From the IMG/VR virus record IMGVR_UViG_3300039008_000121, positions 1 through 54,091 of that record: 54,091 nucleotides of DNA, one strand, 5' to 3'. This document shows positions 2,585 through 54,091 of this stretch, one piece after another. Under the pieces are notes generated by a model. The model was given only the letters and a program-made list of their open reading frames with translations, did no database searches and had not been told where the DNA came from. This stretch comes from a virus. Position 1 is the first letter of the stretch, and every line of letters starts with the position of its first letter. Both the position numbers and the translations under genes were made by a program.

Positions 2585-2711
2585 CAGGATAGAAATAAAA
2601 AAAACCTTTAGTTTTTTGCTTGTGACCAAACCAATATCAACTAAAAGATTTACATCTATTCTCTCCCTGATCTTTCGGCTAAAGTTAAAAACTTTCTAAA
2701 CAATAACAAAT

Positions 2712-3344: not shown

Positions 3345-3401
3345 CAATCATAGGCTACGACATACCGCCCGATTCCTATTGGGAACAAAACCCCGAAAAA
3401 A

Positions 3402-3608
3402 ATGAATACAGTAATGAACAACACCACAGTACACATCGGGTCAAACTACCAGATTACGTACTTAAAAAGTTTCAAAAGATTAATGCTGATTTCGCCCAAC
3501 GGAGAAATCTTGGCAAGAAAAGAGAACTACAAGCCACAGGTTAAAGAATTAGAAGCCAAAATACAAGAATTAAAAAAAGCCTACAGAGCTGCGCGACCAA
3601 CCCTATAG
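3402..3608 (+). CDS. Hypothetical 68-aa protein
   Basis: The composition looks coding, with a C-terminal coiled coil (KPQVKELEAKIQELKKAYRAA). It competes with the overlapping ORF 3341..3544 in another frame. Confidence 0.45.
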   Translation: MNTVMNNTTVHIGSNYQITYLKSFKRLMLISPNGEILARKENYKPQVKELEAKIQELKKAYRAARPTL

Positions 3609-3730
3609 ACTTAAAAACAATTCTCAGCACTTAAGTACTAATGTCAGTAACAAAAAATCAATTTCAATTATGACAAATCAAAAATGACAGCTTTCAAATG
3701 ACAAATCAAAAATAATAAAAATTTTCAATT

Positions 3731-7753: not shown

Positions 7754-7827
7754 CGTCTCCTAGCTCAACCGGATAGAGCAACTACTTCCTTAGTGGTAGG
7801 TTCCAAGTTCGAATCTTGGGGAGACTT
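7754..7827 (+). tRNA. tRNA, probable Arg (anticodon CCT)
   Basis: Cloverleaf by hand: D-stem GCTC/GAGC with GG in the loop, anticodon arm ACTAC-TTCCTTA-GTGGT, variable AGGTT, T-arm CCAAG-TTCGAAT-CTTGG, acceptor GTCTCC/GGAGAC. Oddities are a C:T mismatch at pair 1-72 and T at position 37. Confidence 0.65.
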
Positions 7828-7842
7828 CTAAAATTTGACACG

Positions 7843-33357: not shown

Positions 33358-33468
33358 ATGAAAACAGCAGGGGATAGCCATTATCATGGCGAAGGATTTT
33401 CAGATTATGTGCCTTGGTTAGCCTCGCAAACCGATATGCTTTCAACAGATTGGGAAATAGTTGAATAA
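33358..33468 (+). CDS. Possible 36-aa ORF (below the cutoff)
   Basis: Hand translation gives MKTAGDSHYHGEGFSDYVPWLASQTDMLSTDWEIVE, starting 5 nt after the previous stop. Confidence 0.3.
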   Translation: MKTAGDSHYHGEGFSDYVPWLASQTDMLSTDWEIVE

Positions 33469-33691: not shown

Positions 33692-35698
33692 TTAACTCAC
33701 CTTACCCAAAGCATTATTAAACATTTCAATAACTCTTGGATCGGCCTGACCTTGTATCTGCTGCATTGTTTCAGGATCAAATTGCTGTGGCAATTCTCCA
33801 CCTGCAACGGCCTGTTGTCTCTGCTTAATCTGCTCAAGCAGTTTGTCAGCAAAAGGAATCGAACTGTTTTCCAAGTACATTTGAATATCGATATACTGAC
33901 CATCCAATAACTTCATTAAACTCTCATCAAGCAATTGCCTGAATGCAGGTGTATCGGTACTTTGACCAAGTGAGTATTCAAACTCAATATTCTGAACCGC
34001 TTTAGGATCGTATTTTTTGGCCTCAGCTGAGTACGATTTACCAGACACAATCAAGTTGCGTTCTTCATCATAGAATTGCTGAATAACTTTCAGAATCTTT
34101 CTATCTCTTCGCTCTTTGAATGATTTGAATGAATCCATAACATCCATAGTAGAGATAGTTGCATTCTGTGCCTCTTGAGCATATAAACTAGCAGCCTTTC
34201 CGCTTCCTGCTGTGTGGCCCTGAATGGCACCATTAACACCAGAAATTTCTTGTAACATTCGCATTTGCAAACTCAGCATTTCATGTACACCAATATTGGT
34301 TGAATTCGTGCTAATTTGCCTTGGAATTTCAACACCTGGCTTAGCCTTGTATTTGATTACACCATTATAACGAGTCCATTCCTCTGCAAAATCTTCCTCA
34401 GTCATATCATCAGGAATTGCATCTTCCGGCAATAACAAAACACCCTTAGCCGATGCACCCATAATAAAGTCAATCATGATAATCATTCGGTTTATGTATT
34501 TTTGCTGATCAATAATATCCTCAACAAAACCCCAAACCTTACCATCCACCATAGGATACAAAGCCATAACATACGGATGCTCTTTGTGCGAGAAAGGAGT
34601 TTCACCCTCATACAAACACTGTCCGTAAGGAGTCAGATACTTCACATACCAAAAACGATCAAAACGATTATCGAACTCAATCAAAGGAGCTTCATCTTCC
34701 GGCATACCTGCCTCAACCACCTTGGCAACTCTTTGCCGATTCATCAAAGCGATATCAGCTTTCAACTTTGCCAATTCCTTTTTGGTACCAGAGTGAACTT
34801 CATAACTGGCATCTAACCAATCATGACTATAAACACGCCACTCTCCGCGAAGTTCCCAAGCCTCAATAACTCGACATTTTTGCGGATCCAAATCAGAAAG
34901 AAACGAAAGACCATCAAGCCTGTTGCTATCCAATCCCCGGCTATGCACTACCGATACACTATCAACATGACCATACCAACCACGAATCTTTTTTTCTTCA
35001 TCTTTCGATCTGGCAAAAGCACTCACCAAATCATCCATATCAATATCAAGCACACAACCCATCAAATTCAAGTCAGTCAATCTCGGATCCTCCACATTTG
35101 TATTGAAGAAAACACGATTCATATTTACATTCTCATAGTAAACATCTTCAATCTTTCTGCTTCTCCAATATCGGTAGTTAATCTTACCAACCGCACCGCC
35201 CGATATCAAAAACTCCTCGTATGCTCTTACATCAAGCTCAGGAATCTCATTAATCTGGTGAACAGCTTGCAAGGCATTAGTCATCATTTCCGATGCACTT
35301 GCATCATCCCTGTCACGAGCCACAACAATTGGCTTGGTCTTATTACTTCTGTATTGGCCTAACAAATTTCTAACCAAGTTGCGAATCTGGTTATTTTTCA
35401 ATGGAGTTTTACCTTGTCGAACAATCAACTCCATTTCTGTGATATATTCACCAGGATTATCAGGATCCTCAACTTTATCACTCCACTGATCACCGGAGTA
35501 GAACTTCCGTGCCCGTTCTCTACGCCTCCTAAAATCATCCAACGCATTGTAATACTGACCGCACAAAGTCAACAAACGCAAGTTATCTGCACTATCCTGA
35601 TTTTCTTCTTCGGCAACAACCTTAACTTCAGGCCTCTTAATACCCAAATTCGTATTGTTGTATTTCTTAAAGTTTACTTTACTTAAATCTCTTTGCAT
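33692..35698 (-). CDS. Portal protein candidate
   Basis: 668 aa in the packaging/head region, immediately downstream of the giant virion-associated gene. The call rests on size and on the N-terminal FYSGDQW-type region. Confidence 0.6.
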   Translation of the reverse strand: MQRDLSKVNFKKYNNTNLGIKRPEVKVVAEEENQDSADNLRLLTLCGQYYNALDDFRRRRERARKFYSGDQWSDKVEDPDNPGEYITEMELIVRQGKTPLKNNQIRNLVRNLLGQYRSNKTKPIVVARDRDDASASEMMTNALQAVHQINEIPELDVRAYEEFLISGGAVGKINYRYWRSRKIEDVYYENVNMNRVFFNTNVEDPRLTDLNLMGCVLDIDMDDLVSAFARSKDEEKKIRGWYGHVDSVSVVHSRGLDSNRLDGLSFLSDLDPQKCRVIEAWELRGEWRVYSHDWLDASYEVHSGTKKELAKLKADIALMNRQRVAKVVEAGMPEDEAPLIEFDNRFDRFWYVKYLTPYGQCLYEGETPFSHKEHPYVMALYPMVDGKVWGFVEDIIDQQKYINRMIIMIDFIMGASAKGVLLLPEDAIPDDMTEEDFAEEWTRYNGVIKYKAKPGVEIPRQISTNSTNIGVHEMLSLQMRMLQEISGVNGAIQGHTAGSGKAASLYAQEAQNATISTMDVMDSFKSFKERRDRKILKVIQQFYDEERNLIVSGKSYSAEAKKYDPKAVQNIEFEYSLGQSTDTPAFRQLLDESLMKLLDGQYIDIQMYLENSSIPFADKLLEQIKQRQQAVAGGELPQQFDPETMQQIQGQADPRVIEMFNNALGKVS

Positions 35699-35753: not shown

Positions 35754-38700
35754 CTAATCACCACGACTCACTGCCTCAACAGCATCTTTCATTAGCTTAT
35801 TTTTCAGTCCGGTTAATTCGGAAATTGTTTCTTTATCTTCGATGTTCTTCATGCGATCATTAAGACGATTGATCTGCTTTTGATATTGTCCGAAGGTTTT
35901 AACTCGTCTTAATTGCTCTGTATCTCCAATCATCTTGAAAAGCTTATCTAGTTCACCACTGTTACGATATTGCTTATAGTAGTAATCATACTGGTCAAAT
36001 TCATCTTTAAGCTTGAAGTAATCCTCATAAACACCTTTTTTGTATGATGATTGATACAATCTGCGGAATACAGGAACATTACTGGTCTTAATTTCTTCCT
36101 CACTATCAAGTACCGAGTTTGCAGTCTTAACAACATTATTGAAAAATTTACCTCTACCACCTGCAAAGTATTCCAGGTAATGTTCAGCTTTCGATGGATT
36201 CCAATCGAACAACCAATTTTTAGCAGGATTATTTACCAACTCACCATCTTTCAACTCAACTCCTGCAGGTCTCAAATGATCTCCACCGCCTACTTCATTC
36301 AGCCATTCAGCCAAATCAGTAAGGAAACCATTGGTAGATCTCAAACCCATTTGGCTTTCAGGTTTTCGACCTTCCATATTTTTCGAGAATGCTTCTTTAA
36401 ATACCGGACCACCATAGAAATTTTCATTAACCTTAACATCGAAGATTGGAACCAGTACGGTAGGAACCGCAGGTCTCCAACTTAATTCACCTTTCTTATT
36501 GGTAATACTTGATGTGTTGATAGGAGAAAGCGCATCGGCGAAATTTCCCATTGCTGCATAAAACCCATCAGTAGCCGATTTTCTATCGTTCAATATCTCA
36601 TTGGCAATAACACCAAGACCTGAGAATGATCTAAAGAAGTGAGGCATCGGAATAGTAACAAACTTATTTTCACTTCCCCAAAAATTAGGCAATACCAAAT
36701 TGTTATACTTCTGGTAATCGCTTAACTGATCGTAGTAGTATTCTCCATCTTCATCCTGTCCTCCAAAGGCTCTGGCAATGGCAGAACTCAAAGCACCCAA
36801 TACAGCAAAGCCAGTACTAACCGCTAGCATCTTGCCCTTATGACGCTTCGCCATTGATAAGGCATTCTGCGAACCCTGAACAGTAGCATTAAAGAATGCA
36901 AACAAGGAACCAAGCAAGGAGGTCAATTTTCCTTTGCGGTTGAAGTTTACTGTTATTTCTTTTGCCTGATATGCTGCCTCTTTAGAACTCTTACCCTGCT
37001 GAATAGCAGCCAGATAAGTAGAGAATCGGGCCATATTTTCCGACTGTAAAGCCATGTATTCCAATAACTTACCACTACCTTTAATTAATCGGCCTTGAGT
37101 CATTTGATCCCATTTGGAATTCGTACCGTATAATCGTTTCAAATCCTTCTCGATTCCTTTCTTCAAATCCTTGATGTCGTACAAATGAACAAATCCAGTC
37201 TCTCCACCGCCAATCATAAATTGATGATAGAGTTTATCAATCTCACTATTCATATCAGCCGTACCACGCAAATGACGATCAATTGCGCCCATGGCAACAG
37301 GAAGATTTTTAGCAAACAGAGCAGCACTTTTCGAACCGTGCTTAATCAAATGAGCAGGAATCGAATAACCCATATCTCGAATAAAGTTGATCGGGATAAA
37401 TGCAGGATTCTTACTGGTAAAGTTCTGAGCTAACCAATGTGTCGCCTGTCCGATTGTAGACTGAGCCAACTGAGTAGCTGCCTTGGTAGTTTCTTTTATA
37501 TTGGTTTTATTGACTGCATTGGCAACATTAGGATCAGTGAAATTACCGACCATTTTTGTACCATTAAAGAAAGCCTCTACTTCGTGTTCACTTGCCAATG
37601 GCCTTGCTACTCTGCGCTGATCTTTATTTTTCATCACAACATCAGCCTCACCATTGGCCCACTTTTCCTGATCTGGCTTTTCAAGCGTTTCCTCCCAAAC
37701 CTCATTTCCATCGGCATCCTCGCCAACTTTAACCAGGTACACCTTTTTCAAGTTGAACAAATCAGCTCTGTTCTGATTATTTTTAACCATCCTGAGTGCA
37801 TTCTGCTTGATTCGGTTTTTGTTACCTGCAGCAATAGCCGTATGTGCCATACTTGCCATATATGCTAGCGGATCATCGGCCTCGCTTTCTCTACCTTCGG
37901 CTTTCTTTACCAAATTATAAGCTCCTCCGGTAGAGTTGTTCTGATAATCAAACATTGCATCCATATCCTCAGAACCTTTCCAACCACGTAACGGAACATA
38001 GAAATCAAACATTTCCTGATAAGATTGATACTGATCTTTACTCAAGAAGCCATCCTTAAACCATCGTTCAGTTGTGAATGATGTATTTCGTTTTATCTGG
38101 CTCCAAAGTTCGTTAATCTCACTTTCCGGAATATCTTTTTCAAACTGATCGATTGCCTCTTGTGCCTCCTGATCAGTCATACCCGAATACTTTTCATCGG
38201 CTTGCATGTGTTGTTCAAACACATCTTTCACTTTCTGATCGTATTTCTCATTCGCATCGCTCAGGTTAGCTTCAGCAATATCAACTTCTTCACCAGCTCC
38301 ATATTCTTCTAAGGCTTTATTGTACTGCTTTTTCAAATTGCGAACATTTTTCGCCAAAGAAACAACACTCGGATCAGACATTGTTTTCTTCATGCGAATG
38401 TGCGCATTTCTTTCCGGTGCATGCTTGGCTTTCATATATGCCTGAATCTGTTCAGGATTGGCATAATCCATCAGCTTAGACACAGCCTTTTGTAATGGCT
38501 CAAAGAACTTGGTCGTATAATCATCAATCTGTGCCTTACTTTTCGAACTAGATAAATTTTCCTCTACATAAGGATTCGAGAAATCGTCTACATTTCCACC
38601 GCCTTCAATCACTTTCTCCTGAATATTCCTGACCGATAACATTTGATCCTGGAAGTTCTCTCTTGCCTGTTCACCCTTCGAGTTGATCATCTTTCCCGAC

Positions 38701-41700
38701 TGATTTTTACTTTTAAGCTTAAATCGAACATCAGAATCATCAACAAAAAGCTCACCCTTGCTATTTCGTTCACCTTTTAGTAACTTTGCTACAGGAATAG
38801 AATTAGATTCAGTAGTGGAGTACTGGTAAGTGTCAGCTTTTTGCTGATAACCCGGATTCGGAGCCATGTCTGTTGGCCGTGCTGCTTCTAATTCTATTTT
38901 TTGTACTTCATGAGTGTAGTATTTCTTACCATCATTTCTAACATCCTTAATTGTAATCTTAACCCGTTTTAATTCGCCATTGTGTCTAATCGGCACATAA
39001 AATCTATGTATGGCATTCAGGTTAAAATCTTTTTCAGCCTTTTGTCCTTCATGGCTCTCTGCCAGTACCGATTCCTTTATTAATTCAGGAATAGACTTTA
39101 CCAAATCAATATGGCTTTGATTATTTTCGCTTTTCGATATCGCTTTTCCGCTAAATACCTTCATTAAGCTTTTTCTGCCAACTCTAATCTCAAACCCACT
39201 ATCAGCATTAACATAGCTATTCCCTTGCAAATTCTCTCTTGCCCAATCCTTAGCTTCCTGAATTGTTTTAAAAGAATCAGCAACAACATCTACAATAGCA
39301 ACATTCGGTTTCGATAATAATTCTATTTTACCTGGAGTTTTTAAAGATAATCGTGGCTCATTATAAACACTCATATCATCCAAAAAATCATTGGCATTTG
39401 TGTAATCATTAGGGTTTGGTTCCGCTTTTAATCGCTCCTTACTTTCCGCTAACAATTTGCGAATCTCCGAATCAGAATAAGAAAGCTTGTAAACCTTACG
39501 AATCAATTCGCGAATCTTAGCAATCACTTTATCCAATAGTGTAGGCGACTGATCCAACTCAGCCATTTCAGCAATGTATTCCTCGGCTATCTCGTAATAA
39601 TCATTACCATACGTTTCTGCCAATCTATCAATATCAGATTGGTTCATACCCTTGTAAACCAAATCAAGCACTTCACCAAACCGATCACCAAGAGCAACCC
39701 TCAAACCTCTGTGAGCAACAACCTCATGCAATACCACTCGTCTGGCCTCAGCTCCATCCATAATATTCGAACCAATAATATAAGACGTTTTGCTTTGCGG
39801 ATCGAACACACCTTGTACACGCCCTTCCAAATCAAGCTTGGCAATCTTGTTCTGTATGTACTGTGGCAATCCTGCCTCAGTTGATACGGCAACAATCTTG
39901 GAATTCAATTCCTTCGCCAACTCGTTAACGGTTTCCGAAATCTCCTTGTCATGCCTTCTGATTTCTGACTGAACTGCATTCAAGTAATCAATCGGATGCT
40001 TATAGTCACTCGGAAGGATCTTATTACTCTGCTTGAATTTCAAATCAGTATTTGCAGCAACATCACTTCTAAACTTGTCAGCATCTTCACCAGTCTTAAA
40101 TAAGAAACCTTTTGCAAATCGACTATAAAAACCATTGTTGTTATTGGCTATCGATTTGGTTGCTTGATAAGTATCTTTCTCAACTCTACCATTGAATTTG
40201 ACAAGCTTTAATTCTTCTTTTGTCTTGGTATTGGTGTAATCCTGAGCAGGAGCAAGGAGTTCGCTATTTGTTTCCTCAACTGGAACCGCTTGCTCTTGAA
40301 CTTTTTTCACTTGCGTTGGAATCGATTTAGTTCTTTCTGGCAATGACAAATACTCAATCTGATCAAACAACTCTCCGATATTATCGATTCTATCTAATTC
40401 GATTCGTCTTGTTGGTTGAACATCGATAGGATTCGATGCCTTATCAATCACAATCACCTTAGTACCAACTTTGGTTCCTGCTCTCTCAAATGTTACTTGT
40501 GGAAGAACAACCTCAGCAATAAGATGTGCATCAGAATTATTCGGCTTGCCTTTATCGTTCTCGCCATAAAGAAACTTCTCTAATCTCTTTTGCATTGATG
40601 GTCCATTAGGAACAATCGCCACAACTCTACCACCTTCGCGTAAATGATTGAATGCTTTCTCCACATGTTCCATTGCTGTTTTACCAGACGAACCAAATGG
40701 AGGATTCATAGCAATACCATCAAATTTATTAATGACATTGAAGTCCTCAAATTGCTGTTGCTTAATCGTTCCGCTTGCATTAATGGAAAGCTGAGAACTT
40801 AAAGTGTAACTAGGTTCTACAAAAATATTCTTTGTATCTCCCGGGAAGAATCTTGCAATTGCTCCATGTCCGGCACTTGGTTCAAGTGCCGATTCGTTTG
40901 GCTGCAATCCTAACCACTCAACCACCTTCAAACCTACCGGTTCAGGAGTGGCAAAATAGTCAGTCCCTTCTCTAGACTTGTTCTTGGCAGTTTTCTTGCC
41001 TCTGGCAAAATAGTAAGTTTTAGCCTGATCAAATTCAGACGTTTCCAATACTTGAGTATCGAATTCCTTACCGCCTTTGCCTTGTTCTTTGTTCGGTGCA
41101 TCATCAATTGCATTCTGATAACCTTCTTTAAATGCAGTCTCCAAATCTCTCGCTCTGTTACCCATTGCAAGGTTTTCGGCTGTCTTGGCTCTGGTTGCAA
41201 CCTTTTCAGCAAAAGCATGCTTTTCAAAATCGGTATGCAATACAGGATATTCAAATATCGCATCACTCTCTGAACCCAATCGGTAAATTCTACCTTCGGT
41301 CTGAATAGCATCAGTCGGTGCAGTTGGTAATCCAAGATCAATTAAAACCCTCTGCGTATTTCCTTCGATATCATGCAAAGAAATTCCTTCCTTACCTGCC
41401 TTGCGTTGAACAATCATGATATCAATGCCCGACTTCGGATCGTTAAACTCCTTAATGTAGTTGAATCGTTTCTTTTTCGATATCGTACCGTTGAATTCCC
41501 TTGCCTGTTCTCCAAATTGCTCAACTATCGCACTTCTCGGATTTACCAATTCACCCAAGTCCATGTTTACCAGTTCAGGATATTCCGACTCAAACATATC
41601 AATCTCTGCCTGTAAAGAGGTAGCCAATGCAGGATCTCCTACCATTTCCATCGGGCTAAGCATCTTATCATTTTCGATATTAAAACGGAATGGATGCGAT

Positions 41701-44700
41701 GGAAGCGAATTGTTGTAACCATGGAACAAAACAATCTTTCTACCTAAATCTAAATGCTCCTGAATACGATCAGAGATCTTACCTGCTTTAATCGATTCAA
41801 TAAGCTGATTCATGTATAAGTAATTCCATTTCTTATTAACCTTTTCGGTCAATAATTTATACTTATTCCTAAATGCTTTATTATCCCAATTTCGGAACAA
41901 CAGTATTCCTTCATTAATCTGATTGCTCAATTCAGAATCAAGCAGAACAAATTCCCTCGAATAGTCAGCATCAACAACCAATTGACGACCCGTAACTACT
42001 CCTTCCTTAACCAATTTCTCAAAGAAGTTTCTTTCAAGCAAACTCTGATCAACATCACTTTCCGGAACGGTTACTTTATTGTATCTCATTCGATACCCAA
42101 AGTTTTCAGTTAGCATTTTTTCGAATCCAACTGGTTCGTTATAGGCTGCGTATGAATCACCTTTTAGTTCTAAACTCTCACTGATATCAAATAGGGTACC
42201 ATCACCATAAATCAGGTTTTTATGGTAGGCAAAAGGCGAAGCGGATAAAAACAATACTTTAGTTCTGTCATGCAACTCATTCACTCGCTCATTGTACTTT
42301 TTCTGCCAAATCTTATGTTTTTTCTCCCACTTGGCACGGTCTTTCTCGTACTTATCAAGCTCTTTCTTGTATTTGTCTTTCTGTTGTTGAGTGGCCCAAT
42401 TTCCAGGATCTTTAGGATCATTAGGCTTGATAGGCTCTGGTAATTCTTCCTTAACACGCAACCTTAAAGCACTTGGAAGATTAGAAACAGACCTATGCGC
42501 TTTCAAGTAGGCAGTTGCTTTACCTTGTTCATTCTGATTCAGATAATGGGATTCGTCATAAATAACCAAATCGAAATCACATTGCTGTAATGCTTCGTTT
42601 TGATAGAAATTTGCATAAGTGGTAACCACCTGATTTTCTCCTGCTGTCTTGGTATCCTTTAGCTGAGTAATATCCAATTCAAGATACGATCCATCATTAA
42701 TCCAATCCTTTGCTTTGGCATCAGTAGGAACAATAAAAAGAATATTTTTCTTGCCCTGCAAAACAAATCGCTTGGCAATTCCAAGACCTGTGAAGGTTTT
42801 ACCCGTACCAGTTCCATTGGTGAACAGTTTCCCTTTACCAGTATTCTCACCAGTAAAGAATCTTTGCTCAGCTCTTAAAACATCGCCTTGTTGTTCGGGA
42901 TATAATTGGGGTAGGGTAGCAGCAATATTATCAAGCTGCCCAAGTTTTACGCTCTTCGACTTGCTATCATCAATTCCAGATCTTTCAGGGATTGAACTGT
43001 CTTTAATGTTTCCTCCCTCGATAACCTCAGATCCTTCTGTGCTAGCAATGCTGTTTCCTCTGGCGTCAACACCTCTGGTAACTGATTCCTCAGCTGTGGT
43101 TGATTCGTTTGAGTTATGTAGTTGCTTATCGCTTGATTCTCCAGGTAAAGAGGAAAATAAATCGAGACTGCTCTGCCCACTTTCGGCATTTTGGTTTTCT
43201 CCTCGATCACTCTTCTTACTTCCGCTTCCAGTTTTTCCACTTCTTCCTCGTTCTCCTGAAACATCTTTTGAGTTGTTAGATACTTCATTTCCTGAGTTTC
43301 CGCTATCTTGTTCGCTATTTCCTGACTTATTAGATACATCTTGCTTATTTTTCTCTAAGTTATCACTTTTTTTCTTATCGTCAACAACTTCCTTTTTTAC
43401 CGATGATAACTCGGCAACAGGCTTACGCTTAGTTCCGATAGTCTTTTCTGATTGTTTCAGCCACTTCCTGAACTCATCGATATTCATTTCAGATAAAGCA
43501 CCTAAACCAGTCCAACCCTCAGTATAATTGGCAAGGTAATTCGATCTTGCTTGATCGGCATTGTTAAACCCTAGCATGACTTTATGCTCGTCAAAACTTC
43601 CATCTTCATTAACCTGATCAACGATGAATACCTTTTCCGATTGTGGATTTTCACCAATGAACACATCTACATGATCACCATCTTTACCTTTAGTGCGCTT
43701 GAAGTAACCATAGTGGTTATTCATTTCGATTTCCCACGATTGGCCGTTAGGATCTACGCCTGATCGTTTTCCTCCTTTCGGGTTCTCGATAGCAATATCT
43801 AAACCTTGAACAGTAACATGGCCCTTCTTGTAGTTTCCTGCCTCTTTCTGTTTTTCGGTTGGATTCTGTTCTACTTCTTTGGCTGCATTTTCAATTTCCT
43901 TGGCTTTTTCAAATGAATGAGCTGAGACTGTATCGTAAGAATCCATTTCTTTTGCAAGATCTTCCATACCCGGCAAATCTCTTGCACCATTATAGAACGA
44001 TTTCAAGTAAGGCTCAATTGCCTCACCCAAATCACTCACCATATTTTTAGAGAAGTCAGCAAATTTCCTCGCTCCGGATTCAATGTGATACATCGCCATT
44101 TGAGTACCGATAGAAAGCAACTCAGGATCGAAACCAGAATTTAAGTTATTCAGTTTCGACTTCATTCGTTCTCTCAGCTTAGTATACTGATCATTGGAGA
44201 TTAGCTTATTATTCTCACCGTATTTTTTGGACTCTTTCTGGCCTTTTGAAACCTCAGTATTTTCGGACTGTTTACTATTTTTAGTAAGCTTTTTGGTCTT
44301 TTTCTGGCCCTTTTCTGGCCCTTTACCATTTTTAGTAAGGTTTTCTTCTGATTCAGGTTGATATACATAACCTTCTGGAAGAGCAATAAATCTGGAAATC
44401 GATGTATTTTTATCTTCTTCATATCCATGATCCAACCTCCTTGCTTGACCAACACTATTTGAAGGAGAAACCTTTGTAACCTCATACGGTACACCTGTGA
44501 ACATATCATAGATCATATCTCCTTTTTTAAAGAGATCCAATCTTTTTACATCATACTTATCACTAAATACATTTGATCTTTGATAAGAATCAATAGGGCC
44601 TAATCCTTTGTCTCCTTCTGGATTATATATAGGCAAGCCATTCACATAAGTCTCAATCGGAATGTGAGGGTTTAGATTTTCAGGAATATTATCAGGATTA

Positions 44701-47528
44701 TCGATATTAGAAGACTCAGTAATCTCCTCAAGCGGATTTACTTCTTCTGCTCCTGATTCGCTTGATTCTTCTTGCGGATCTCGCTTAATTTCGCTTTCGC
44801 TAACAGCCTCTTGGCTTCCTTCACCATTTGTTTCTTCTGATCTGTCTTGTTCATTTAAGTATGATTTTATCAGGTTGATATCATCAGGAGTAAGAACCTC
44901 CGCAAATCCATCAACATTAGTAGCATTAAATCCATTTTCCAACCATTCTTGTAGATACTCATCCGATATATTTTCGGCAGCGGCTTGTTCCTGGTCTGAT
45001 AATTCGGTACCAATAATCCTATCGGCTTCATTCAAAGTTAATTTATTACCAGTAATATCTTCATATTTCTGAGCAATTTCATCGGTAAGAGTGTTCGCCT
45101 TTATTGATCTTGGACCGTTAGGGAACTTCTTCATAAACTCAATGATATTATCTTCTGTAATTTCAACGCCTGCAGTAGTTGATATTTCTTGAGCTGCATC
45201 ATCAATTTGCTGACCATCTTGAGCGAAGTAATTCAATTGTATTTGTTTAGCACCTTCCAAGTGGTTCAAATCTCCAAATCTTTCAAAACCATCTTTGCGA
45301 ATACGGCCTAGATGCTCTCGAATCATTTCTTCCTCATAAGTTAGTTCAGGAATCTTGGCTTGTTCTTCCAGGTATGCAAGAGCTAATTCCGTAGGATTCT
45401 GACTTGTTTCCAATACAGCCTGATTAACCTGATCAGGATTCATACCATCCGAAAGTTCTGCCATTGGTAAACTCTGATTGAGTTGGTTAAGTCTATCCTG
45501 AATCAACTCACTCATAGCATCGTCGTTCTCGACTTTGATACCGTTCAATTGTTTTGGACTTTTAACAAATTGAAGGAAACCTTCTAATTCCTCTCTATCC
45601 ACCTGATCCTTACCAATGGAATAAGAAGACTCCTTAACCGGAAACTTACTACTAACTAAATTACTCAGCTCATCATCATTCTGAATTGCCAACCCACTAA
45701 TATCTTCTATATTCTCAGCAGCACGAATTAAACCTTTTGCCTGACCTCGGGAAATTGGTTCGCCATTCATTAAATAGGTTGGTTCCGTACTCTCCTGAAC
45801 TTCCACTTGCTTCGGCTTGCCACTTACTCGATATTCATCTTCTGTCAATACATCGCCCGAATCTTTCATGTCAACCTGCCAATCTGCTTTAGGAAATCGC
45901 TTTTCCAAATCCTTACGAACCTTTTCCGCTTCTTGTTGAGTAGAATAAACCTGATCTAATTCGATACCACCATCCTCCGATTCATTAACAGGAATCTCAG
46001 ATTTATTCACTGTAATCTTTCTTCGATCATCCTGAACCTGTTCAGCTTGCTCAGTCGCTTCTTCATTAACTGGTGCTTGCTCCACTCTTTGTAGAGTTGG
46101 AACATCAGCAGCAGGAACTTGAATAGATCCGTTTTCTGTTTCCAGGACTAACGAACCATCCTCAGCAATATCACTCACCACTCCAACCTGATCACCATAT
46201 TGAAAAGTCTCATCGAACTGTGGTAATTGATCTCCGGCTAACTCAACCGGTTCTTGTTCGTTCCCTGAGAACTCCTGATCAATCTGAGAATTCTTACCAT
46301 TCAGATAATCATCAGCGTTCATTACATTGCCGATCTCGATATCATTAACCGAAACTGATCTGCGATTCTCACCGTTTGCATCCGAAACAATCAACATACC
46401 ATCACCATCATCTAAATCACCATTGATAACAAATACATTGCTTCCATCCTTATCCAATCCACCTACCAAATTTCCACTTGGATGAGTAACGGCCTTAATC
46501 TTTTTTTGCGCTTTTTTCTTTTGAACACTATTAATTACCTTACTGGAAACATTGACAGGAGTTGAAACGGCTGAACCTGCACCAACGCCTATAAGAAATG
46601 CATCCATTGTTCCATCCATCACGTTACGTTCTGAATCTACTCCTGTATATTTATCAGTTAAGTTTTGAGAAAATTGAGTGGCACTCTCCTCAATCCCTTC
46701 GTGAATAGCAGTAGTGATTGGGTGTAATTTTTGAAGTCTACTCTCTACTGTTTTTATAAATCCATTTTTAGTAACCTTTTCAAAATTTTCCTTTCCAATC
46801 TTTTCAAGTAAATCCTTACTGAATGAACCTAGTTTAACAGTACCCATTTGTTCAAATGCACCCTCAGCCAAACCAGTCAATAGGGAATTGTAAGTCTTAG
46901 TAAATTCACTCAGATTCTTCGATTCATCCTCCTCGCTTAATTCGTCAAGCTCATTCTTCTTTAAACTACCTGAATAGGCTGTCATTGGTGCAATCATATT
47001 TACCTCTGCTGCACCTCCTGCCATTAATCCAACCATCAACGGCAATGTTTCAGCAACAGATAACGTCAAAACTTTTCCAGCATTAACAAAATCTTTGTTT
47101 CCTATATACTCGGTGATACTTTTATCATATTGCTTAGTTGATTCGTTATTGATTTCAGTAAGTTTATTGTAATATGAAGACAATCCCGCAGGGTCTTTTA
47201 GCCATTCGGGTGAAGATGCAGCTAATCCAGGTAAATTAAATTTCTCAGCAACATAGTTTTGAGGCATAGCAAATACGTCATAAACAAACGAAGGCATTCT
47301 GGCCATACCTTCACCCAAAGATGAACTTCCTGCTTTTAATTTATCGTAAACCTGCTTCCCAAAACTAGTATTTTCTTTAGGCTTATCTTCCCCTGAATTT
47401 TTGTCTGACTCTAAGTCTTTCATGTAACTATCATATGCTTGTATAGCCGGATCAGGTTGCCTATCAGCATTTATATAAGGACTAAATATCTGATTTAGTT
47501 TTTCTGAATCGTATTTCTTTTCTGTCAT
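35754..47528 (-). CDS. Giant 3,924-aa polyvalent protein: pyrophosphatase-like domain, SF2 helicase, N6-adenine MTase, HExxH module and a TM-containing C-terminal region
   Basis: A single uninterrupted ORF. Motif positions were checked against the nucleotide sequence: DGDHVDVF 43659..43682, GTGTGKT 42795..42815, DESH 42546..42557, QTEGRIYRLG 41274..41303, EPSAGHG 40863..40883, NPPF 40695..40706, HEVVAH 39711..39728. Confidence 0.85.
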   Translation of the reverse strand: MTEKKYDSEKLNQIFSPYINADRQPDPAIQAYDSYMKDLESDKNSGEDKPKENTSFGKQVYDKLKAGSSSLGEGMARMPSFVYDVFAMPQNYVAEKFNLPGLAASSPEWLKDPAGLSSYYNKLTEINNESTKQYDKSITEYIGNKDFVNAGKVLTLSVAETLPLMVGLMAGGAAEVNMIAPMTAYSGSLKKNELDELSEEDESKNLSEFTKTYNSLLTGLAEGAFEQMGTVKLGSFSKDLLEKIGKENFEKVTKNGFIKTVESRLQKLHPITTAIHEGIEESATQFSQNLTDKYTGVDSERNVMDGTMDAFLIGVGAGSAVSTPVNVSSKVINSVQKKKAQKKIKAVTHPSGNLVGGLDKDGSNVFVINGDLDDGDGMLIVSDANGENRRSVSVNDIEIGNVMNADDYLNGKNSQIDQEFSGNEQEPVELAGDQLPQFDETFQYGDQVGVVSDIAEDGSLVLETENGSIQVPAADVPTLQRVEQAPVNEEATEQAEQVQDDRRKITVNKSEIPVNESEDGGIELDQVYSTQQEAEKVRKDLEKRFPKADWQVDMKDSGDVLTEDEYRVSGKPKQVEVQESTEPTYLMNGEPISRGQAKGLIRAAENIEDISGLAIQNDDELSNLVSSKFPVKESSYSIGKDQVDREELEGFLQFVKSPKQLNGIKVENDDAMSELIQDRLNQLNQSLPMAELSDGMNPDQVNQAVLETSQNPTELALAYLEEQAKIPELTYEEEMIREHLGRIRKDGFERFGDLNHLEGAKQIQLNYFAQDGQQIDDAAQEISTTAGVEITEDNIIEFMKKFPNGPRSIKANTLTDEIAQKYEDITGNKLTLNEADRIIGTELSDQEQAAAENISDEYLQEWLENGFNATNVDGFAEVLTPDDINLIKSYLNEQDRSEETNGEGSQEAVSESEIKRDPQEESSESGAEEVNPLEEITESSNIDNPDNIPENLNPHIPIETYVNGLPIYNPEGDKGLGPIDSYQRSNVFSDKYDVKRLDLFKKGDMIYDMFTGVPYEVTKVSPSNSVGQARRLDHGYEEDKNTSISRFIALPEGYVYQPESEENLTKNGKGPEKGQKKTKKLTKNSKQSENTEVSKGQKESKKYGENNKLISNDQYTKLRERMKSKLNNLNSGFDPELLSIGTQMAMYHIESGARKFADFSKNMVSDLGEAIEPYLKSFYNGARDLPGMEDLAKEMDSYDTVSAHSFEKAKEIENAAKEVEQNPTEKQKEAGNYKKGHVTVQGLDIAIENPKGGKRSGVDPNGQSWEIEMNNHYGYFKRTKGKDGDHVDVFIGENPQSEKVFIVDQVNEDGSFDEHKVMLGFNNADQARSNYLANYTEGWTGLGALSEMNIDEFRKWLKQSEKTIGTKRKPVAELSSVKKEVVDDKKKSDNLEKNKQDVSNKSGNSEQDSGNSGNEVSNNSKDVSGERGRSGKTGSGSKKSDRGENQNAESGQSSLDLFSSLPGESSDKQLHNSNESTTAEESVTRGVDARGNSIASTEGSEVIEGGNIKDSSIPERSGIDDSKSKSVKLGQLDNIAATLPQLYPEQQGDVLRAEQRFFTGENTGKGKLFTNGTGTGKTFTGLGIAKRFVLQGKKNILFIVPTDAKAKDWINDGSYLELDITQLKDTKTAGENQVVTTYANFYQNEALQQCDFDLVIYDESHYLNQNEQGKATAYLKAHRSVSNLPSALRLRVKEELPEPIKPNDPKDPGNWATQQQKDKYKKELDKYEKDRAKWEKKHKIWQKKYNERVNELHDRTKVLFLSASPFAYHKNLIYGDGTLFDISESLELKGDSYAAYNEPVGFEKMLTENFGYRMRYNKVTVPESDVDQSLLERNFFEKLVKEGVVTGRQLVVDADYSREFVLLDSELSNQINEGILLFRNWDNKAFRNKYKLLTEKVNKKWNYLYMNQLIESIKAGKISDRIQEHLDLGRKIVLFHGYNNSLPSHPFRFNIENDKMLSPMEMVGDPALATSLQAEIDMFESEYPELVNMDLGELVNPRSAIVEQFGEQAREFNGTISKKKRFNYIKEFNDPKSGIDIMIVQRKAGKEGISLHDIEGNTQRVLIDLGLPTAPTDAIQTEGRIYRLGSESDAIFEYPVLHTDFEKHAFAEKVATRAKTAENLAMGNRARDLETAFKEGYQNAIDDAPNKEQGKGGKEFDTQVLETSEFDQAKTYYFARGKKTAKNKSREGTDYFATPEPVGLKVVEWLGLQPNESALEPSAGHGAIARFFPGDTKNIFVEPSYTLSSQLSINASGTIKQQQFEDFNVINKFDGIAMNPPFGSSGKTAMEHVEKAFNHLREGGRVVAIVPNGPSMQKRLEKFLYGENDKGKPNNSDAHLIAEVVLPQVTFERAGTKVGTKVIVIDKASNPIDVQPTRRIELDRIDNIGELFDQIEYLSLPERTKSIPTQVKKVQEQAVPVEETNSELLAPAQDYTNTKTKEELKLVKFNGRVEKDTYQATKSIANNNNGFYSRFAKGFLFKTGEDADKFRSDVAANTDLKFKQSNKILPSDYKHPIDYLNAVQSEIRRHDKEISETVNELAKELNSKIVAVSTEAGLPQYIQNKIAKLDLEGRVQGVFDPQSKTSYIIGSNIMDGAEARRVVLHEVVAHRGLRVALGDRFGEVLDLVYKGMNQSDIDRLAETYGNDYYEIAEEYIAEMAELDQSPTLLDKVIAKIRELIRKVYKLSYSDSEIRKLLAESKERLKAEPNPNDYTNANDFLDDMSVYNEPRLSLKTPGKIELLSKPNVAIVDVVADSFKTIQEAKDWARENLQGNSYVNADSGFEIRVGRKSLMKVFSGKAISKSENNQSHIDLVKSIPELIKESVLAESHEGQKAEKDFNLNAIHRFYVPIRHNGELKRVKITIKDVRNDGKKYYTHEVQKIELEAARPTDMAPNPGYQQKADTYQYSTTESNSIPVAKLLKGERNSKGELFVDDSDVRFKLKSKNQSGKMINSKGEQARENFQDQMLSVRNIQEKVIEGGGNVDDFSNPYVEENLSSSKSKAQIDDYTTKFFEPLQKAVSKLMDYANPEQIQAYMKAKHAPERNAHIRMKKTMSDPSVVSLAKNVRNLKKQYNKALEEYGAGEEVDIAEANLSDANEKYDQKVKDVFEQHMQADEKYSGMTDQEAQEAIDQFEKDIPESEINELWSQIKRNTSFTTERWFKDGFLSKDQYQSYQEMFDFYVPLRGWKGSEDMDAMFDYQNNSTGGAYNLVKKAEGRESEADDPLAYMASMAHTAIAAGNKNRIKQNALRMVKNNQNRADLFNLKKVYLVKVGEDADGNEVWEETLEKPDQEKWANGEADVVMKNKDQRRVARPLASEHEVEAFFNGTKMVGNFTDPNVANAVNKTNIKETTKAATQLAQSTIGQATHWLAQNFTSKNPAFIPINFIRDMGYSIPAHLIKHGSKSAALFAKNLPVAMGAIDRHLRGTADMNSEIDKLYHQFMIGGGETGFVHLYDIKDLKKGIEKDLKRLYGTNSKWDQMTQGRLIKGSGKLLEYMALQSENMARFSTYLAAIQQGKSSKEAAYQAKEITVNFNRKGKLTSLLGSLFAFFNATVQGSQNALSMAKRHKGKMLAVSTGFAVLGALSSAIARAFGGQDEDGEYYYDQLSDYQKYNNLVLPNFWGSENKFVTIPMPHFFRSFSGLGVIANEILNDRKSATDGFYAAMGNFADALSPINTSSITNKKGELSWRPAVPTVLVPIFDVKVNENFYGGPVFKEAFSKNMEGRKPESQMGLRSTNGFLTDLAEWLNEVGGGDHLRPAGVELKDGELVNNPAKNWLFDWNPSKAEHYLEYFAGGRGKFFNNVVKTANSVLDSEEEIKTSNVPVFRRLYQSSYKKGVYEDYFKLKDEFDQYDYYYKQYRNSGELDKLFKMIGDTEQLRRVKTFGQYQKQINRLNDRMKNIEDKETISELTGLKNKLMKDAVEAVSRGD

Positions 47529-47537: not shown

Positions 47538-48944
47538 TTAAAATAATTGATCAGTAAGATTTTGAATGTCCGTTTCTGGCATTCCTACTCTCTTTAAATA
47601 CCCCTCAATAACTAACCTTTTTTGAGCTAGAGGAACACGGGTTTCATCTGTCTGCATAATCGATTCGATTTTCTTCATGTCGATATCATATGTAGGAGCC
47701 TTTTGAGACACTTGGCCATCTTTAGAGGTATAATATTTGTCATGATAATCGGCTACCAGAATATTAAGAGCATTCTTAGCATTCTCATCACCCATCGCCA
47801 AGGAAAGAACATCGATCTTTTTACTCAGATCTTCATCATTCTTGATTTTGGTAACGATATCCCAATACACACCTTGTGGCAATTTGGTAAGTTTCCCATC
47901 GGAACCCATAACTTCTAATCGATCATCCTTACCTTTAGACTTATTCATATTAGCAAAGAACCTCGACCACTGATCTTGCCTGCGTTGCTGATTCAAGTCG
48001 AATGTCAAACCACGTTGTTTAAGCGATTCAGAAGTTGCAAACTCACGCTGAAATTGTGCCATATCCCTCTGATTCTTGATCTGCTTATCCATCCGCTTAT
48101 CTGCATTTCGTTGAGACTTGTCGAATCGTTCATCTGACAAAGCATAGGTTAACGCCGTTCGTTTATCTTCTCTATTAGTTGCAATCTGACGAATCTTATT
48201 TTGCAACTCCACCATCTTGTATTGCTCCTTATCGTTATGGTACTTATCACGCATCTTGTCAAGTTCATCCAAAGTCTTAGCGATATATGGATTGTCAGAT
48301 CTTTTCTGAATGATTGCACCTTTCGAAGCTCCAACCCCTTCGGCAAGCAATTTGAAAGCATCACCCAAAGCCTGATATTTAGCTCTGGTTTGTAATCGCT
48401 TTTCCTTATCCTTATCGTAAGCAGGGGCCATACCTTCCATCAATCCTGCAAATGGCTTATCACTACCAATAAGATCCATAAACTTTTGATATCGTTCCTC
48501 GGTAGTTGATAGAGGCTTATTTTCTTCTTCCTTGAATTCAGGTGCTTTTACATCGGTCTTGTTTCTCCAATTGCCAGTATTGGCATCGTTTTTTTCAGGA
48601 AGAACAGCAGGAATCGATTGAGTACCACCAACTGTAACACCTTCCGATTGAGTCCGATTATTCGGATCAACAATAGGCCTTTCTGGTTTTTCAGTTTTTC
48701 CCTGTAATTCAGTATTTTTCCCACTAACAGGAAAAACAGGAACATTCCTATCGGTAGTTTTTCTAATTCTTTCTTCTTCTACTTTCGGCCTATTGTCACC
48801 ATTTTTCCCACTAACAGGAAAAACAGGAACATTCCTATCGGTAGTTTTTCTAATTCTTTCTTCTTCTACTTTCGGCCTATTGTCACCATTCTCAAAGAAA
48901 TCATCGAATGAAAAATCAGCCTGCACTGCTTGTTTCTCTGTCAT
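47538..48944 (-). CDS. Internal virion/ejection protein candidate, 468 aa (start moved to MTEKQ)
   Basis: The Met at 48944 overlaps the upstream stop (TAATG). The protein contains a perfect 29-aa duplication, and the rest is K/R/Q/D-rich and helical. Confidence 0.5.
   Translation of the reverse strand: MTEKQAVQADFSFDDFFENGDNRPKVEEERIRKTTDRNVPVFPVSGKNGDNRPKVEEERIRKTTDRNVPVFPVSGKNTELQGKTEKPERPIVDPNNRTQSEGVTVGGTQSIPAVLPEKNDANTGNWRNKTDVKAPEFKEEENKPLSTTEERYQKFMDLIGSDKPFAGLMEGMAPAYDKDKEKRLQTRAKYQALGDAFKLLAEGVGASKGAIIQKRSDNPYIAKTLDELDKMRDKYHNDKEQYKMVELQNKIRQIATNREDKRTALTYALSDERFDKSQRNADKRMDKQIKNQRDMAQFQREFATSESLKQRGLTFDLNQQRRQDQWSRFFANMNKSKGKDDRLEVMGSDGKLTKLPQGVYWDIVTKIKNDEDLSKKIDVLSLAMGDENAKNALNILVADYHDKYYTSKDGQVSQKAPTYDIDMKKIESIMQTDETRVPLAQKRLVIEGYLKRVGMPETDIQNLTDQLF
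48714..48887. repeat. Perfect 2 x 87-bp tandem duplication within the CDS
   Basis: 48714..48800 equals 48801..48887. It encodes GDNRPKVEEERIRKTTDRNVPVFPVSGKN twice. Confidence 0.9.
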
Positions 48945-49444
48945 TACGCACCTCCCAACATGTTTAAACTGCTCGAAACACCCTTCATCGCATTCGATGC
49001 GAAATTGCCCCAACTATTAGCAACCTGCGATTGCATGTTGTTTATTTGGGTATCATACCCCATTTTTCTATTCATGTAGCCATTCTTAATATTCTGCTTG
49101 TATTGAGTAGCGTAACCACCCAATTTATTGACCGAATCAGAAAATACATTCTGATTTTTTTCCTTAACCGCTATAGTCGCTTCGGGTGTCGATCCGGTTA
49201 CTACGGCTGTATTATCAGCCTTTTTATTATCCTTGTCAAGTCGATCATTCAAAGTTTTAATAACCGATCTTGCTTGTTCAGAATCAAAAAAATCCTTGTA
49301 ATAATCAGAATTGAACATCTGTTTATTATCTTCAGCCTGCCTTTGAATCATACGATTTAACCTCTTTTGCGCCTGACCTTGTTTTATCATTCCGAAAATA
49401 GTACCAGCTGCACTAACACCTGCTCCAATTGCTCCTGCCGACAT
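48944..49444 (-). CDS. Glycine-zipper small protein, first gene of the portal/giant-gene operon
   Basis: The N-terminus is MSAGAIGAGVSAAGTIFGMI. 166 aa. Confidence 0.5.
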   Translation of the reverse strand: MSAGAIGAGVSAAGTIFGMIKQGQAQKRLNRMIQRQAEDNKQMFNSDYYKDFFDSEQARSVIKTLNDRLDKDNKKADNTAVVTGSTPEATIAVKEKNQNVFSDSVNKLGGYATQYKQNIKNGYMNRKMGYDTQINNMQSQVANSWGNFASNAMKGVSSSLNMLGGA

Positions 49445-49567: not shown

Positions 49568-50032
49568 ATGGCAGGAAAACAGAAATATACGCCCGAAGAG
49601 ATTTCGAATGTTCTCAGAATAATGGATGAGAATAACGGTAGCGTTATGGCTGCTCATCGAAAGACAGGAATAAGTAGGGCCACATTAACAAGATGGAAGG
49701 AAAAACACTATCAGGGCATAGCTATTCGAGCAAACAAAAGAGTAGAGGAGAAAATCACTAAAACATACGAGAATATACATGAAGCGGTACTGATAGAAGA
49801 AGGAAAGCTTGAAAAAAGAGCAATCAAGGCAAAGGAGGCCATCATTAATCGCATCATAGAATTAGTGCCAAACGAAAAGAATATCGATCGCTTAAGCAAT
49901 GCCCTCAAAACTATGCACACCATTGCCACTGGTGAAGATCCTGACAAACCCAAAGGAGGCGGTAATACCTTAAACATATATCAAGAAGTCCAACAATTAT
50001 TAATACAGCAGAATGGAAACAGCAAGGATTGA
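49568..50032 (+). CDS. HTH protein (small-terminase-like or late regulator)
   Basis: 154 aa. The N-terminus has an HTH segment NNGSVMAAHRKTGISRATLTRWKEKH. Confidence 0.5.
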   Translation: MAGKQKYTPEEISNVLRIMDENNGSVMAAHRKTGISRATLTRWKEKHYQGIAIRANKRVEEKITKTYENIHEAVLIEEGKLEKRAIKAKEAIINRIIELVPNEKNIDRLSNALKTMHTIATGEDPDKPKGGGNTLNIYQEVQQLLIQQNGNSKD

Positions 50033-52652: not shown

Positions 52653-52683
52653 AAGACTCATAGGTGTGAGTCTTTCTTATTTT
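52653..52683 (+). terminator. Rho-independent terminator at the convergent junction with int
   Basis: AAGACTCA-TAGGTG-TGAGTCTT followed by TCTTATTTT. Confidence 0.7.
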
Positions 52684-53881: not shown

Positions 53882-53897
53882 TGTCTTTTTTATGAAT

Positions 53898-53929
53898 TTG
53901 CAAACACTTTTTTGCAAACATTTTGCAAA
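53898..53929. promoter_or_regulatory. Three TTGCAAAC repeats: candidate arm-type sites (other attP arm), possibly overlapping the int promoter
   Basis: TTGCAAA at 53898-53904, 53912-53918 and 53923-53929, spaced 14 and 11 bp, immediately upstream of the integrase start at 53881. Confidence 0.5.
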
Positions 53930-53950
53930 CTTTTCCCATTGGAAAGATAC

Positions 53951-54091
53951 AAAACCGTCCAAAAACGACCAAACAAAAGCAAAATACAGGTATTAAAAAA
54001 GGGTTTCAGAACTTCTGAAACCCTTAGTATTAATGCGGAAAGGAAGGGATTCGAACCCCCGAAACGCTTTTGGCGTTTACTCGCTTTCCAG
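53951..54091. repeat. Terminal direct repeat, copy 2 (identical to 1..141)
   Basis: Same 141 nt as the window start. It contains the tRNA fragment and the hairpin. Confidence 0.95.

Follow-up and report, generated by a model that had tools for sequence, protein, structure and literature searches.

The 54,091-nucleotide (nt) IMG/VR record IMGVR_UViG_3300039008_000121, hereafter the window, was analyzed at its full length, and all coordinates count from its first letter. On the minus strand, beside the portal gene, it carries one gene for a protein of 3,924 amino acids (aa). This giant protein is a genuine and well-preserved member of a published class, the polyvalent giant virion proteins with an LPD38 domain. 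We consider it likely that the protein is encapsidated and ejected, with conserved N- and C-terminal modules and a swappable cargo of enzymes; any single cargo function is proposed with much less confidence than this overall reading. The phage, a temperate podovirus, has an SU10-type capsid and a P22-type portal, and its host is probably a Marinifilum-like member of the Bacteroidota.

Packaging of the window protein in the capsid and its release at infection are inferred from homologues. JC1 gp69 was the second best-scoring protein in CsCl-purified virions, with 51 unique peptides (PMC9144972). The 2,811-aa phi24B gp47, which contains LPD5, LPD1, MuF-C and LPD38 domains, is abundant in virions and unresolved in cryo-electron microscopy, and its authors propose that it is an ejection protein (bioRxiv 10.64898/2026.04.10.717836). 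CRISPRi-ART showed that PTXU04 gp25, a polyvalent protein of 2,198 aa, is essential (PMC11879866).

The gene is real in its full extent. The window ends in a 141-nt direct repeat (1-141 and 53951-54091, identical) and is thus a circularly closed assembly, representing a complete phage genome of ~53,950 bp. The initial annotation of this DNA had described one uninterrupted open reading frame (ORF) of 3,924 aa that takes up about 22% of the genome, which agrees with the measured share of 21.8%. An identical, full-length copy of the protein is predicted on an independent Logan assembly, SRR21418661, and its C-terminal 1,351 residues are also predicted on a JGI metagenome contig, where the same downstream genes are found. 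The remaining two minus-strand frames contain 206 and 511 stops over the ORF, and 3,924 stop-free codons would occur by chance with a probability of ~2e-123 at the base composition of the window. Hundreds of viral contigs, and cultured phages as well, contain collinear ORFs of 2,600 to >4,400 aa. The idea that several genes were joined by a sequencing or assembly error, for which the unusual length is the sole hint, therefore has virtually no chance of being correct: identical copies in independent assemblies rule out a frameshift, and the alternative frames are full of stops.

All the motifs quoted in the initial annotation were found where it had placed them, namely HYGYF at residue 1272, DGDHVDVF at 1283, GTGTGKT at 1572, DESH at 1658, QTEGRIYRLG at 2076, EPSAGHG at 2216, NPPF at 2275 and HEVVAH at 2601. 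Its seven modules are likewise all present, and Pfam and PHROG profile searches gave significant matches that include the inorganic pyrophosphatase (InPase), LPD3 and LPD38 domains (Table 1). Megablast of the giant gene against 50,697 phage records gave no match, and an NCBIfam search of the protein gave no 'PLxRFG' match, though Klebsiella relatives bear that name. The giant protein has a single cysteine (C1650) among its 3,924 residues, a striking depletion that would suit a protein unfolding to pass the portal, tail and periplasm.

Table 1. Giant gene, predicted modules of its product and neighboring virion genes in the window
Feature	Residues (aa)	Position (nt)	Strand	Basis
Whole giant gene, 3,924-aa polyvalent protein	1-3924	35754..47528	minus	ATG 47528, stop 35754-35756; single ATG-to-stop ORF
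Conserved N-terminal module	~45-345	46494..47396	minus	motif EGxEExATQxxQNxxDxxTG
Acidic, poorly conserved region	346-1090	44259..46493	minus	composition; patches common to a few metagenomic giants
Helical domain, ~105 aa	1097-1203	43920..44240	minus	phrog_10089 'DarB-like antirestriction' 1.2e-46
InPase domain	1225-1358	43455..43856	minus	PF18823 2.4e-58, model 1-135/135
Low-complexity S/G/N/K linker	~1389-1530	42939..43364	minus	aa 1401-1500 = 54% S/G/N/K
SWI2/SNF2-type superfamily 2 (SF2) ATPase	1543-2100	41229..42902	minus	motif I GTGTGKT, II DESH, VI QTEGRIYRLG
S-adenosylmethionine (SAM)-dependent NPPF methyltransferase (MTase)	2185-2365	40434..40976	minus	phrog_6263 'DNA methyltransferase' 9e-20
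Small domain, ~70 aa	~2425-2495	40044..40256	minus	phrog_15406 4e-8
Zincin-like metallopeptidase (MPTase), HExxxH variant	2524-2704	39417..39959	minus	alignment A2, AlphaFold (AF2) model
LPD3 domain	2757-2871	38916..39260	minus	PF18798 9.3e-21, phrog_18222 1.5e-17
C-terminal module, ~990 aa, mostly helical	2937-3924	35757..38720	minus	phrog_14770, phrog_616
Hydrophobic helix	3567-3585	36774..36830	minus	sole C-terminal segment above Kyte-Doolittle 1.3
LPD38 domain	3599-3820	36069..36734	minus	PF18857 2.2e-27; ~1/5 of C-terminal module
T7-gp14-like internal virion (ejection) protein, 166 aa		48944..49444	minus	PF24072 T7_gp14 (E 0.0044, below threshold); Gly/Ala-rich N-terminus
gp15-position gene		47538..49013	minus	491 aa from TTG start; 468 aa from ATG 48944
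Portal protein, P22-type		33692..35698	minus	PF16510 1.1e-46, phrog_156 2e-73

The C-terminal module was matched by tblastn in 346 cultured-phage records, at the C-termini of giant proteins, and it also matches at least 583 IMG/VR stretches. The cultured phages include BS-TP4 (99% coverage, expect (E) value 2e-74), Vibrio phages, the Stx phages 933W and phi24B, the Bcep22-like phages JC1 and DC1, Ralstonia phages and Bacillus phage Pony. Identities range from 21 to 26% over 75-99% of the module with E-values down to 2e-74, and the matches to JC1 and phi24B cover 86-98% at E 4e-36 to 4e-51. The family shares the motifs HAPERN, YVPLRG, TVNFNRKG and FFNAxxQG. The AF2 model of the module is mostly helical (pLDDT 85.4, pTM 0.84), and its matches in BFVD are exclusively polyvalent/LPD38 proteins with TM-scores of 0.5-0.73, among them, at rank 23, the polyvalent protein of PTXU04, presumably gp25. 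The module has no match in the PDB by fold or profile, and a likeness to solved ejection proteins was rejected on this ground. The initial annotation had recognized a C-terminal region of ~1,000 aa with two transmembrane-like helices; the region stands, but at a Kyte-Doolittle threshold of 1.3 it holds one hydrophobic segment and not a second. A search of species-representative genomes for exact peptide patterns of the module found no prophage copies.

At the other end of the protein, the N-terminal module has relatives in 625 representative clusters (E<=1e-3); the proteins that carry it are large, reaching 4,503 aa, and it sits close to their N-terminus in every case. The Gly/Ala-rich hydrophobic region noticed in the initial annotation is present within it (aa 153-182, nt 46983-47072). 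No Pfam, PHROG or PDB relative of the module was found. Homology to the injection domain of the virion RNA polymerase (vRNAP) of N4 was considered and is unsupported: hhalign placed the EGxEExATQxxQN motif on N4 gp50 aa 390-444 with 7% probability, and a hidden Markov model built from 149 N-terminal modules did not report N4 gp50 against 3,000 shuffles. The region that follows, aa 346-1090, is acidic, with a net charge of -6 to -21 per 100 aa over residues 401-1000, and gave no tblastn match in cultured phages and no PHROG match.

We compared the best 80 IMG/VR loci with a related giant ORF, to which all locus counts below refer. The complete giant ORFs measure 2,644-4,212 aa, and most of the others exceed the 10-kb flank and are thus longer than 4,200 aa. 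The N-terminal module heads 5 of the 11 complete ORFs. Nearly every relative retains the C-terminal module and the HExxxH domain, and InPase is common, whereas the pair of SF2 ATPase and MTase is found in only 4 of the 80 loci, always in the order helicase then methylase. Other cargo in the relatives comprises ART, ParB-like, RelA/SpoT, PBECR, radical-SAM, GNAT, SLT, LPD1, LPD5 and MuF-C domains. On these sequence comparisons, the conserved N-terminal module and a C-terminal unit made of the HExxxH peptidase, LPD3 and the ~1,000-aa LPD38 module are shown to form a chassis, between whose parts lie exchangeable enzymes.

The overall closest relative, on IMG/VR contig IMGVR_UViG_3300027082_000006 (locus L015), is collinear with aa 1094-3891 of the window protein and shares the order helical domain, InPase, SNF2, MTase, peptidase and C-terminal module. 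Cultured phages encode giants of comparable size: the protein measures 3,764 aa in Serratia phage Parlo, 3,912 aa in Ruegeria phage 45A6 and 5,391 aa in BS-TP4. Proteins of 3,100-4,600 aa with a helicase-then-methylase core occur in Parlo, Ruegeria 45A6, Vibrio phage D274 (3,162 aa) and the Bcep22-like phages. Given these phages and the collinear contig, the suggestion that this domain order and size may be undescribed finds no support. The 5,391-aa relative in BS-TP4 (L005, 714-16889) is annotated only as hypothetical. It combines ddrB-ParB and InPase domains with a Strawberry-notch helicase and LPD38, and the publication on this gut phage does not discuss it.

In position, the giant gene corresponds to gp16 in T7 and to the vRNAP gene in N4. 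The 166-aa gene, the ~470-aa gene, the giant gene and the P22-type portal gene follow one another in this order and direction on the minus strand; the giant gene starts 9 nt past the stop of the ~470-aa gene, and the portal gene lies 55 nt beyond the giant gene. T7 gp14 is an internal virion and outer-membrane pore protein. Its Pfam model is matched by five of the six members of the 166-aa protein family (best E 4.7e-7), and homologues of the 166-aa protein are encoded upstream of giant ORFs in loci L016, L024, L031, L036 and L051; an IMG/VR scan with the protein as query returned no relatives. From these profile matches, the family marks a T7/N4-like ejection-gene slot in a phage with an SU10 capsid and a P22 portal. 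The major capsid protein and the adaptor are of SU10 type by profile matches, with TerL nearby. In 64 of the 80 loci, a homologous portal gene comes after the giant ORF in the same orientation, and in the Bacteroides phage BS-TP4 the 5,391-aa gene lies directly upstream of its portal gene. The initial annotation had assigned the gene to the place where podoviruses encode packaged and ejected internal proteins, and the block of virion genes beside the portal with a gp14-like gene upstream supports this. It was also right about the flanking portal, but the two small glycine-rich proteins on the other side proved to be products of 166 aa and 491 or 468 aa.

The gene in the gp15 position more likely starts at ATG 48944 (468 aa), where it overlaps the stop of the preceding gene. 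Its product has no Pfam or PHROG match, and a weak homologue is encoded upstream of the giant ORF in L016. A perfect tandem duplication (87 bp x2, 100% match) lies inside this gene at 48714-48890 on the minus strand; it keeps the reading frame and doubles a 29-aa stretch (NGDNRPKVEEERIRKTTDRNVPVFPVSGK). Either the duplication is recent or the assembly produced it.

Within the conserved C-terminal unit, the domain preceding LPD3 is predicted to be an MPTase. In the 56-sequence alignment A2, H2601, E2602 and H2606 are invariant and G2608, E2650, A2653, A2656 and E2657 nearly so; E2650 is invariant in a 14-sequence set. The initial annotation had labeled HEVVAH as HExxH. The module holds up but the label does not, as HEVVAH is an HExxxH motif and the pattern HE..H occurs nowhere in the giant protein; HEXXXH-motif metallopeptidases in polyvalent proteins were already reported (PMC5512222). 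The 933W homologue reads HEIIHH, which fits both spacings. The AF2 model of aa 2515-2715 (pLDDT 91.5) consists of an N-terminal helix, three strands, a long helix carrying the motif and a later helix carrying E2650. This topology matches the zincin topology of PMC5512222. Foldseek ranked anthrax lethal factor, MATCAP and Certhrax at the top of the PDB matches, but at E 0.1-4 and TM 0.3-0.39, which makes the fold assignment suggestive, not proven. A PDB profile search gave a weak match to a zincin-like protein (E 0.4); Iyer et al. linked the peptidase of N4 vRNAP to lethal factor (PMC5512222). A reading of HExxxH...EEYIAE as the HExxGH/EExxAE pair of family M49 (DPP III) was rejected, because the family keeps E2650 and A2656-E2657 while E2654 is not conserved.

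The middle of the protein opens with the ~105-aa helical domain, which is common to almost all 'DarB-like' giant podophage proteins and is 45-52% identical to those of Parlo, BS-TP4, Klebsiella phage ZX1, Bcep22 and JC1. The InPase domain that follows, first noticed as an InPase-like core, matches its Pfam model over the full length; it is of the type I inorganic-pyrophosphatase-like kind in the polyvalent-protein clade, retains the metal-binding motif DGDHVDV, and matches the C-terminus of the Pa193 portal protein gp19 (PDB 9b41_L) at 1e-35. The S/G/N/K linker, estimated before at ~150 aa, is present as described, and the Parlo protein has an equivalent low-complexity stretch at the corresponding position.

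The SF2 helicase of the initial annotation is matched by Pfam ResIII (aa 1543-1676, 1.9e-10) and Helicase_C (aa 2004-2085, 1.3e-5) and could be refined. A profile of the helicase-methylase core built from eight relatives (alignment A7) found SsoRad54 first in the PDB (1.8e-11), followed by RapA, Chd1, ISWI and DDM1. Since SWI2/SNF2 enzymes lead these matches, the helicase is an SNF2-type translocase; relatives of it match the Strawberry-notch Helicase_C_4 model. The MTase carries a TP motif ATPEPV at ~2194, EPSAGHG at 2216 and NPPF 59 residues later, all invariant in alignment A7. It is predicted to be a gamma-class N6-adenine DNA MTase, in line with the initial annotation, by these motifs and the PHROG match, and the gamma-class arrangement of motifs was described for DarB-type enzymes by Iyer et al. 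(PMC5512222). Its best PDB matches with the core profile are rRNA MTases, at only E 0.012. The small ~70-aa domain after it has matches in 13 IMG/VR giant ORFs at varying coordinates.

Long helical regions and low-complexity linkers are what one would expect if the protein were mainly structural, an internal-core or scaffold-like component whose enzyme-like domains are inactive relics, and the abundance of phi24B gp47 in virions together with its absence from the resolved structure would fit as well. We regard this as quite improbable, since the motifs are intact and invariant across the relatives (Walker A/B, motif VI, EPSAGHG/NPPF, DGDHVDV, and HExxxH with its Glu) and InPase matches its model end to end (2e-58).

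Alternatively, the giant protein could be a purely accessory antirestriction passenger of the DarB type, carried in the head, dispensable on non-restricting hosts and without a role in the DNA conduit. The pair of MTase and SF2 ATPase appears distantly homologous to that of P1 DarB, databases label the relatives 'DarB-like antirestriction', and P1 darB likewise adjoins the portal gene. However, this pair is present in so few of the related giants, while the modules at both ends and the peptidase persist, that we find a purely accessory role unlikely. PTXU04 gp25 is essential on a laboratory host, and its phage provides one of the structural matches to the C-terminal model. The gene also occupies a gp14/gp15/gp16-type slot, and the domain order is the reverse of that in DarB, with no LPD36 detected. 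The helicase-methylase pair is probably antirestrictive in itself. Thus, the single injected counter-defence toolkit proposed in the initial annotation fits the variable middle of the protein only; as a reading of the whole it is too narrow. The end modules are conserved, the gene sits in a gp16-like position and PTXU04 gp25 is essential, all of which point to a core ejection role.

If the giant protein is such an ejection protein, a few copies would be packaged into the head, and the C-terminal region would serve as the determinant of packaging or ejection, as in N4 vRNAP. At infection, it would exit via the portal and tail, either before the DNA or together with it, and the hydrophobic helices of its end modules might help to bridge, cross or insert in the envelope. 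The steps assigned to the cargo follow from domain biochemistry. The SNF2 translocase could carry the methylase along the entering DNA and so protect it in cis from restriction, as for P1 DarB; InPase could clear pyrophosphate or a nucleotide signal; and the peptidase could process the polyprotein into its functional parts, either prior to delivery or afterwards.

Several results weigh against an encapsidated ejection protein or its proposed cargo. The evidence for location in the virion comes from homologues, and the window phage is known from its sequence alone. The C-terminal model does not resemble the solved ejection proteins T7 gp15 and gp16 or any other PDB entry, and without structural similarity to gp16 the parallel with that protein is positional only. 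The hydrophobic segment aa 3567-3585 lies within a confidently modeled helix of the C-terminal module in the AF2 model. Pfam detected no lytic transglycosylase (SLT) in the protein, unlike T7 gp16 or Parlo. As for the neighbors, the window 166-aa protein itself matches PF24072 T7_gp14 over its full length but below threshold (E 0.0044), and no relationship to gp15 could be detected for the ~470-aa protein. The fold match of the peptidase lacks statistical significance. The Pfam MTS match (aa 2266-2319) is also sub-threshold at 18.2 bits against a cut-off of 23, and the DNA-adenine specificity of the MTase is drawn from motifs. Finally, in P1 DarB the MTase (aa 91-274) precedes the helicase (857-1518), the reverse of the window order (1543-2100, then 2185-2365), and the similarity is marginal (MTase 25% identity, E 3e-5; helicase C-lobe E 0.008 by BLAST).

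The ejection-protein reading can be extended, tentatively and with some doubt on our part, to the view that the N-terminal (~300 aa) and C-terminal (~1,000 aa) modules constitute a distinct trans-envelope ejection device that replaces T7 gp16 or N4 vRNAP, and that they serve as a universal enzyme-swapping chassis in a very large clade of podophages with P22-type portals, including abundant Bacteroidota gut and marine phages. The motifs HAPERN, YVPLRG, TVNFNRKG and FFNAxxQG might even mark an unrecognized catalytic or pore-forming activity of the C-terminal module. The picture of phage biology is unchanged by the window protein, because the class, most of its domains and the HExxxH variant were already published. 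Its value is that of a clean and complete example, from a marine Bacteroidota temperate phage, of a class that is widespread and experimentally almost untouched. The analysis separates a conserved chassis from exchangeable cargo and places the gene in its slot in at least 64 related viral contigs. This framing predicts that the chassis is essential and found in virions, and that the cargo matters on defended hosts only. The nature of the two chassis modules, for which no structural relative has been solved, retains a mild interest.

Elsewhere in the window, a 62-nt stretch at 80-141 (= 54030-54091) is 98% identical to the 3' end of a tRNA-Ser(GGA) in a metagenome-assembled genome of Marinifilum sp. 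(NZ_OZ246019.1). It adjoins the integrase gene (52682-53962, minus strand), whose product carries an Arm-DNA-bind_5 domain of the Bacteroidota type, and is likely the attP site. The Marinifilum genome contains a second copy of the tRNA fragment beside an integrase of 32% identity. The tRNA match together with this second copy suggests a Marinifilum-like host (Bacteroidota, Marinilabiliales). The phage encodes a tRNA-Arg(CCT) at 7754-7828 on the plus strand. An 865-aa ORF (50013-52610, plus strand) lies on the strand opposite the ejection-gene block, between that block and the integrase; it has no Pfam match, and phrog_32516 is its sole PHROG match. Between an RNase H-like gene and the portal gene, a 36-aa ORF (MKTAGDSHYHGEGFSDYVPWLASQTDMLSTDWEIVE; 33358-33468, plus strand) weakly matches PF11195 (Tad2-like / DUF2829). 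It could be what is left of an anti-Thoeris-type sponge, or a miniature form of one; N4 likewise has a DUF2829 gene beside its vRNAP gene.

Among known systems, T7 and N4 resemble the window in gene order. Both T7 gp14-gp15-gp16 and N4 gp52-gp51-gp50 run from a small internal protein through a mid-sized one to a very large one, and in N4 the vRNAP follows gp52 (150 aa) and gp51 (644 aa). The N4 vRNAP has an N-terminal region for injection, the enzyme in the middle and a C-terminal, MPTase-containing region for encapsidation. In contrast, neither the N- nor the C-terminal module of the window giant has sequence or fold similarity to T7 gp16 or N4 gp50; only the peptidase motif region of gp50 aligns with the window protein, with an hhalign probability of 6%.

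P1 DarB (2,255 aa) shares a SAM MTase with motif I EPSAGxG and an SF2 ATPase, is capsid-associated and is encoded adjacent to the portal gene. It has no literal match to NPP[YF] and lacks InPase, LPD3, LPD38 and both chassis modules. Pfam found no LPD36 in the window protein, which thus differs from the LPD36-MTase-helicase architecture of the DarB family. On sequence grounds, the window protein appears DarB-like at the level of domain content: the resemblance first seen in its methylase and helicase appears to reflect distant homology but not a common architecture.

Much closer in the middle are Parlo (CPT_Parlo_081), Ruegeria 45A6 (ANH49087) and Vibrio D274, which are 36-41% identical over the ~1,000-aa linker-SNF2-MTase core in the same order. 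Their N-terminal thirds are unrelated to that of the window protein. Parlo starts with SLT and ends in LPD39, not LPD38, and both Ruegeria 45A6 and Parlo have a GNAT domain after the MTase.

The polyvalent proteins of phage type described by Iyer, Burroughs, Anand, de Souza & Aravind (2017, J Bacteriol, PMC5512222) likewise join many unrelated enzymatic domains in one polypeptide among virion genes. The window protein, already called polyvalent in the initial annotation, is a textbook case: it contains InPase, LPD3, LPD38, the SNF2-MTase dyad and the HEXXXH zincin-like MPTase, and its matches to the Pfam models for InPase, LPD3 and LPD38 derived from that work (PF18823, PF18798, PF18857) all exceed the curated cut-offs. 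It differs in that those models cover neither the stretch up to residue ~1,090 nor the greater part of the C-terminal module. Moreover, the order in the published proteins is nearly always LPD36, MTase, helicase, whereas in the window protein the helicase comes before the MTase. InPase is fused to the portal in Pa193 (PDB 9b41), and further InPase-portal fusions were reported by the same authors (PMC5512222).

The LPD38 giants of cultured phages, namely phi24B gp47/933W L0134, Bcep22 gp75/JC1 gp69, the Ralstonia phage proteins, PTXU04 gp25 and BS-TP4 gp3, differ mainly in what they carry. The cargo is LPD5, LPD1 and MuF-C in 933W and a ParB-like domain with a Strawberry-notch helicase in BS-TP4, and the Bcep22-like phages, as well as Parlo, carry an SLT where the window protein has no transglycosylase. 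The N-terminal module of the window protein was undetected in these cultured-phage proteins; the one exception is Ruegeria 45A6, where part of it matches weakly. In common with the window protein, the LPD38 giants possess a homologous C-terminal module with a peptidase-type domain upstream of it. JC1 likewise devotes ~22% of its genome to one gene, and BS-TP4, like the window phage, encodes its giant directly upstream of the portal.

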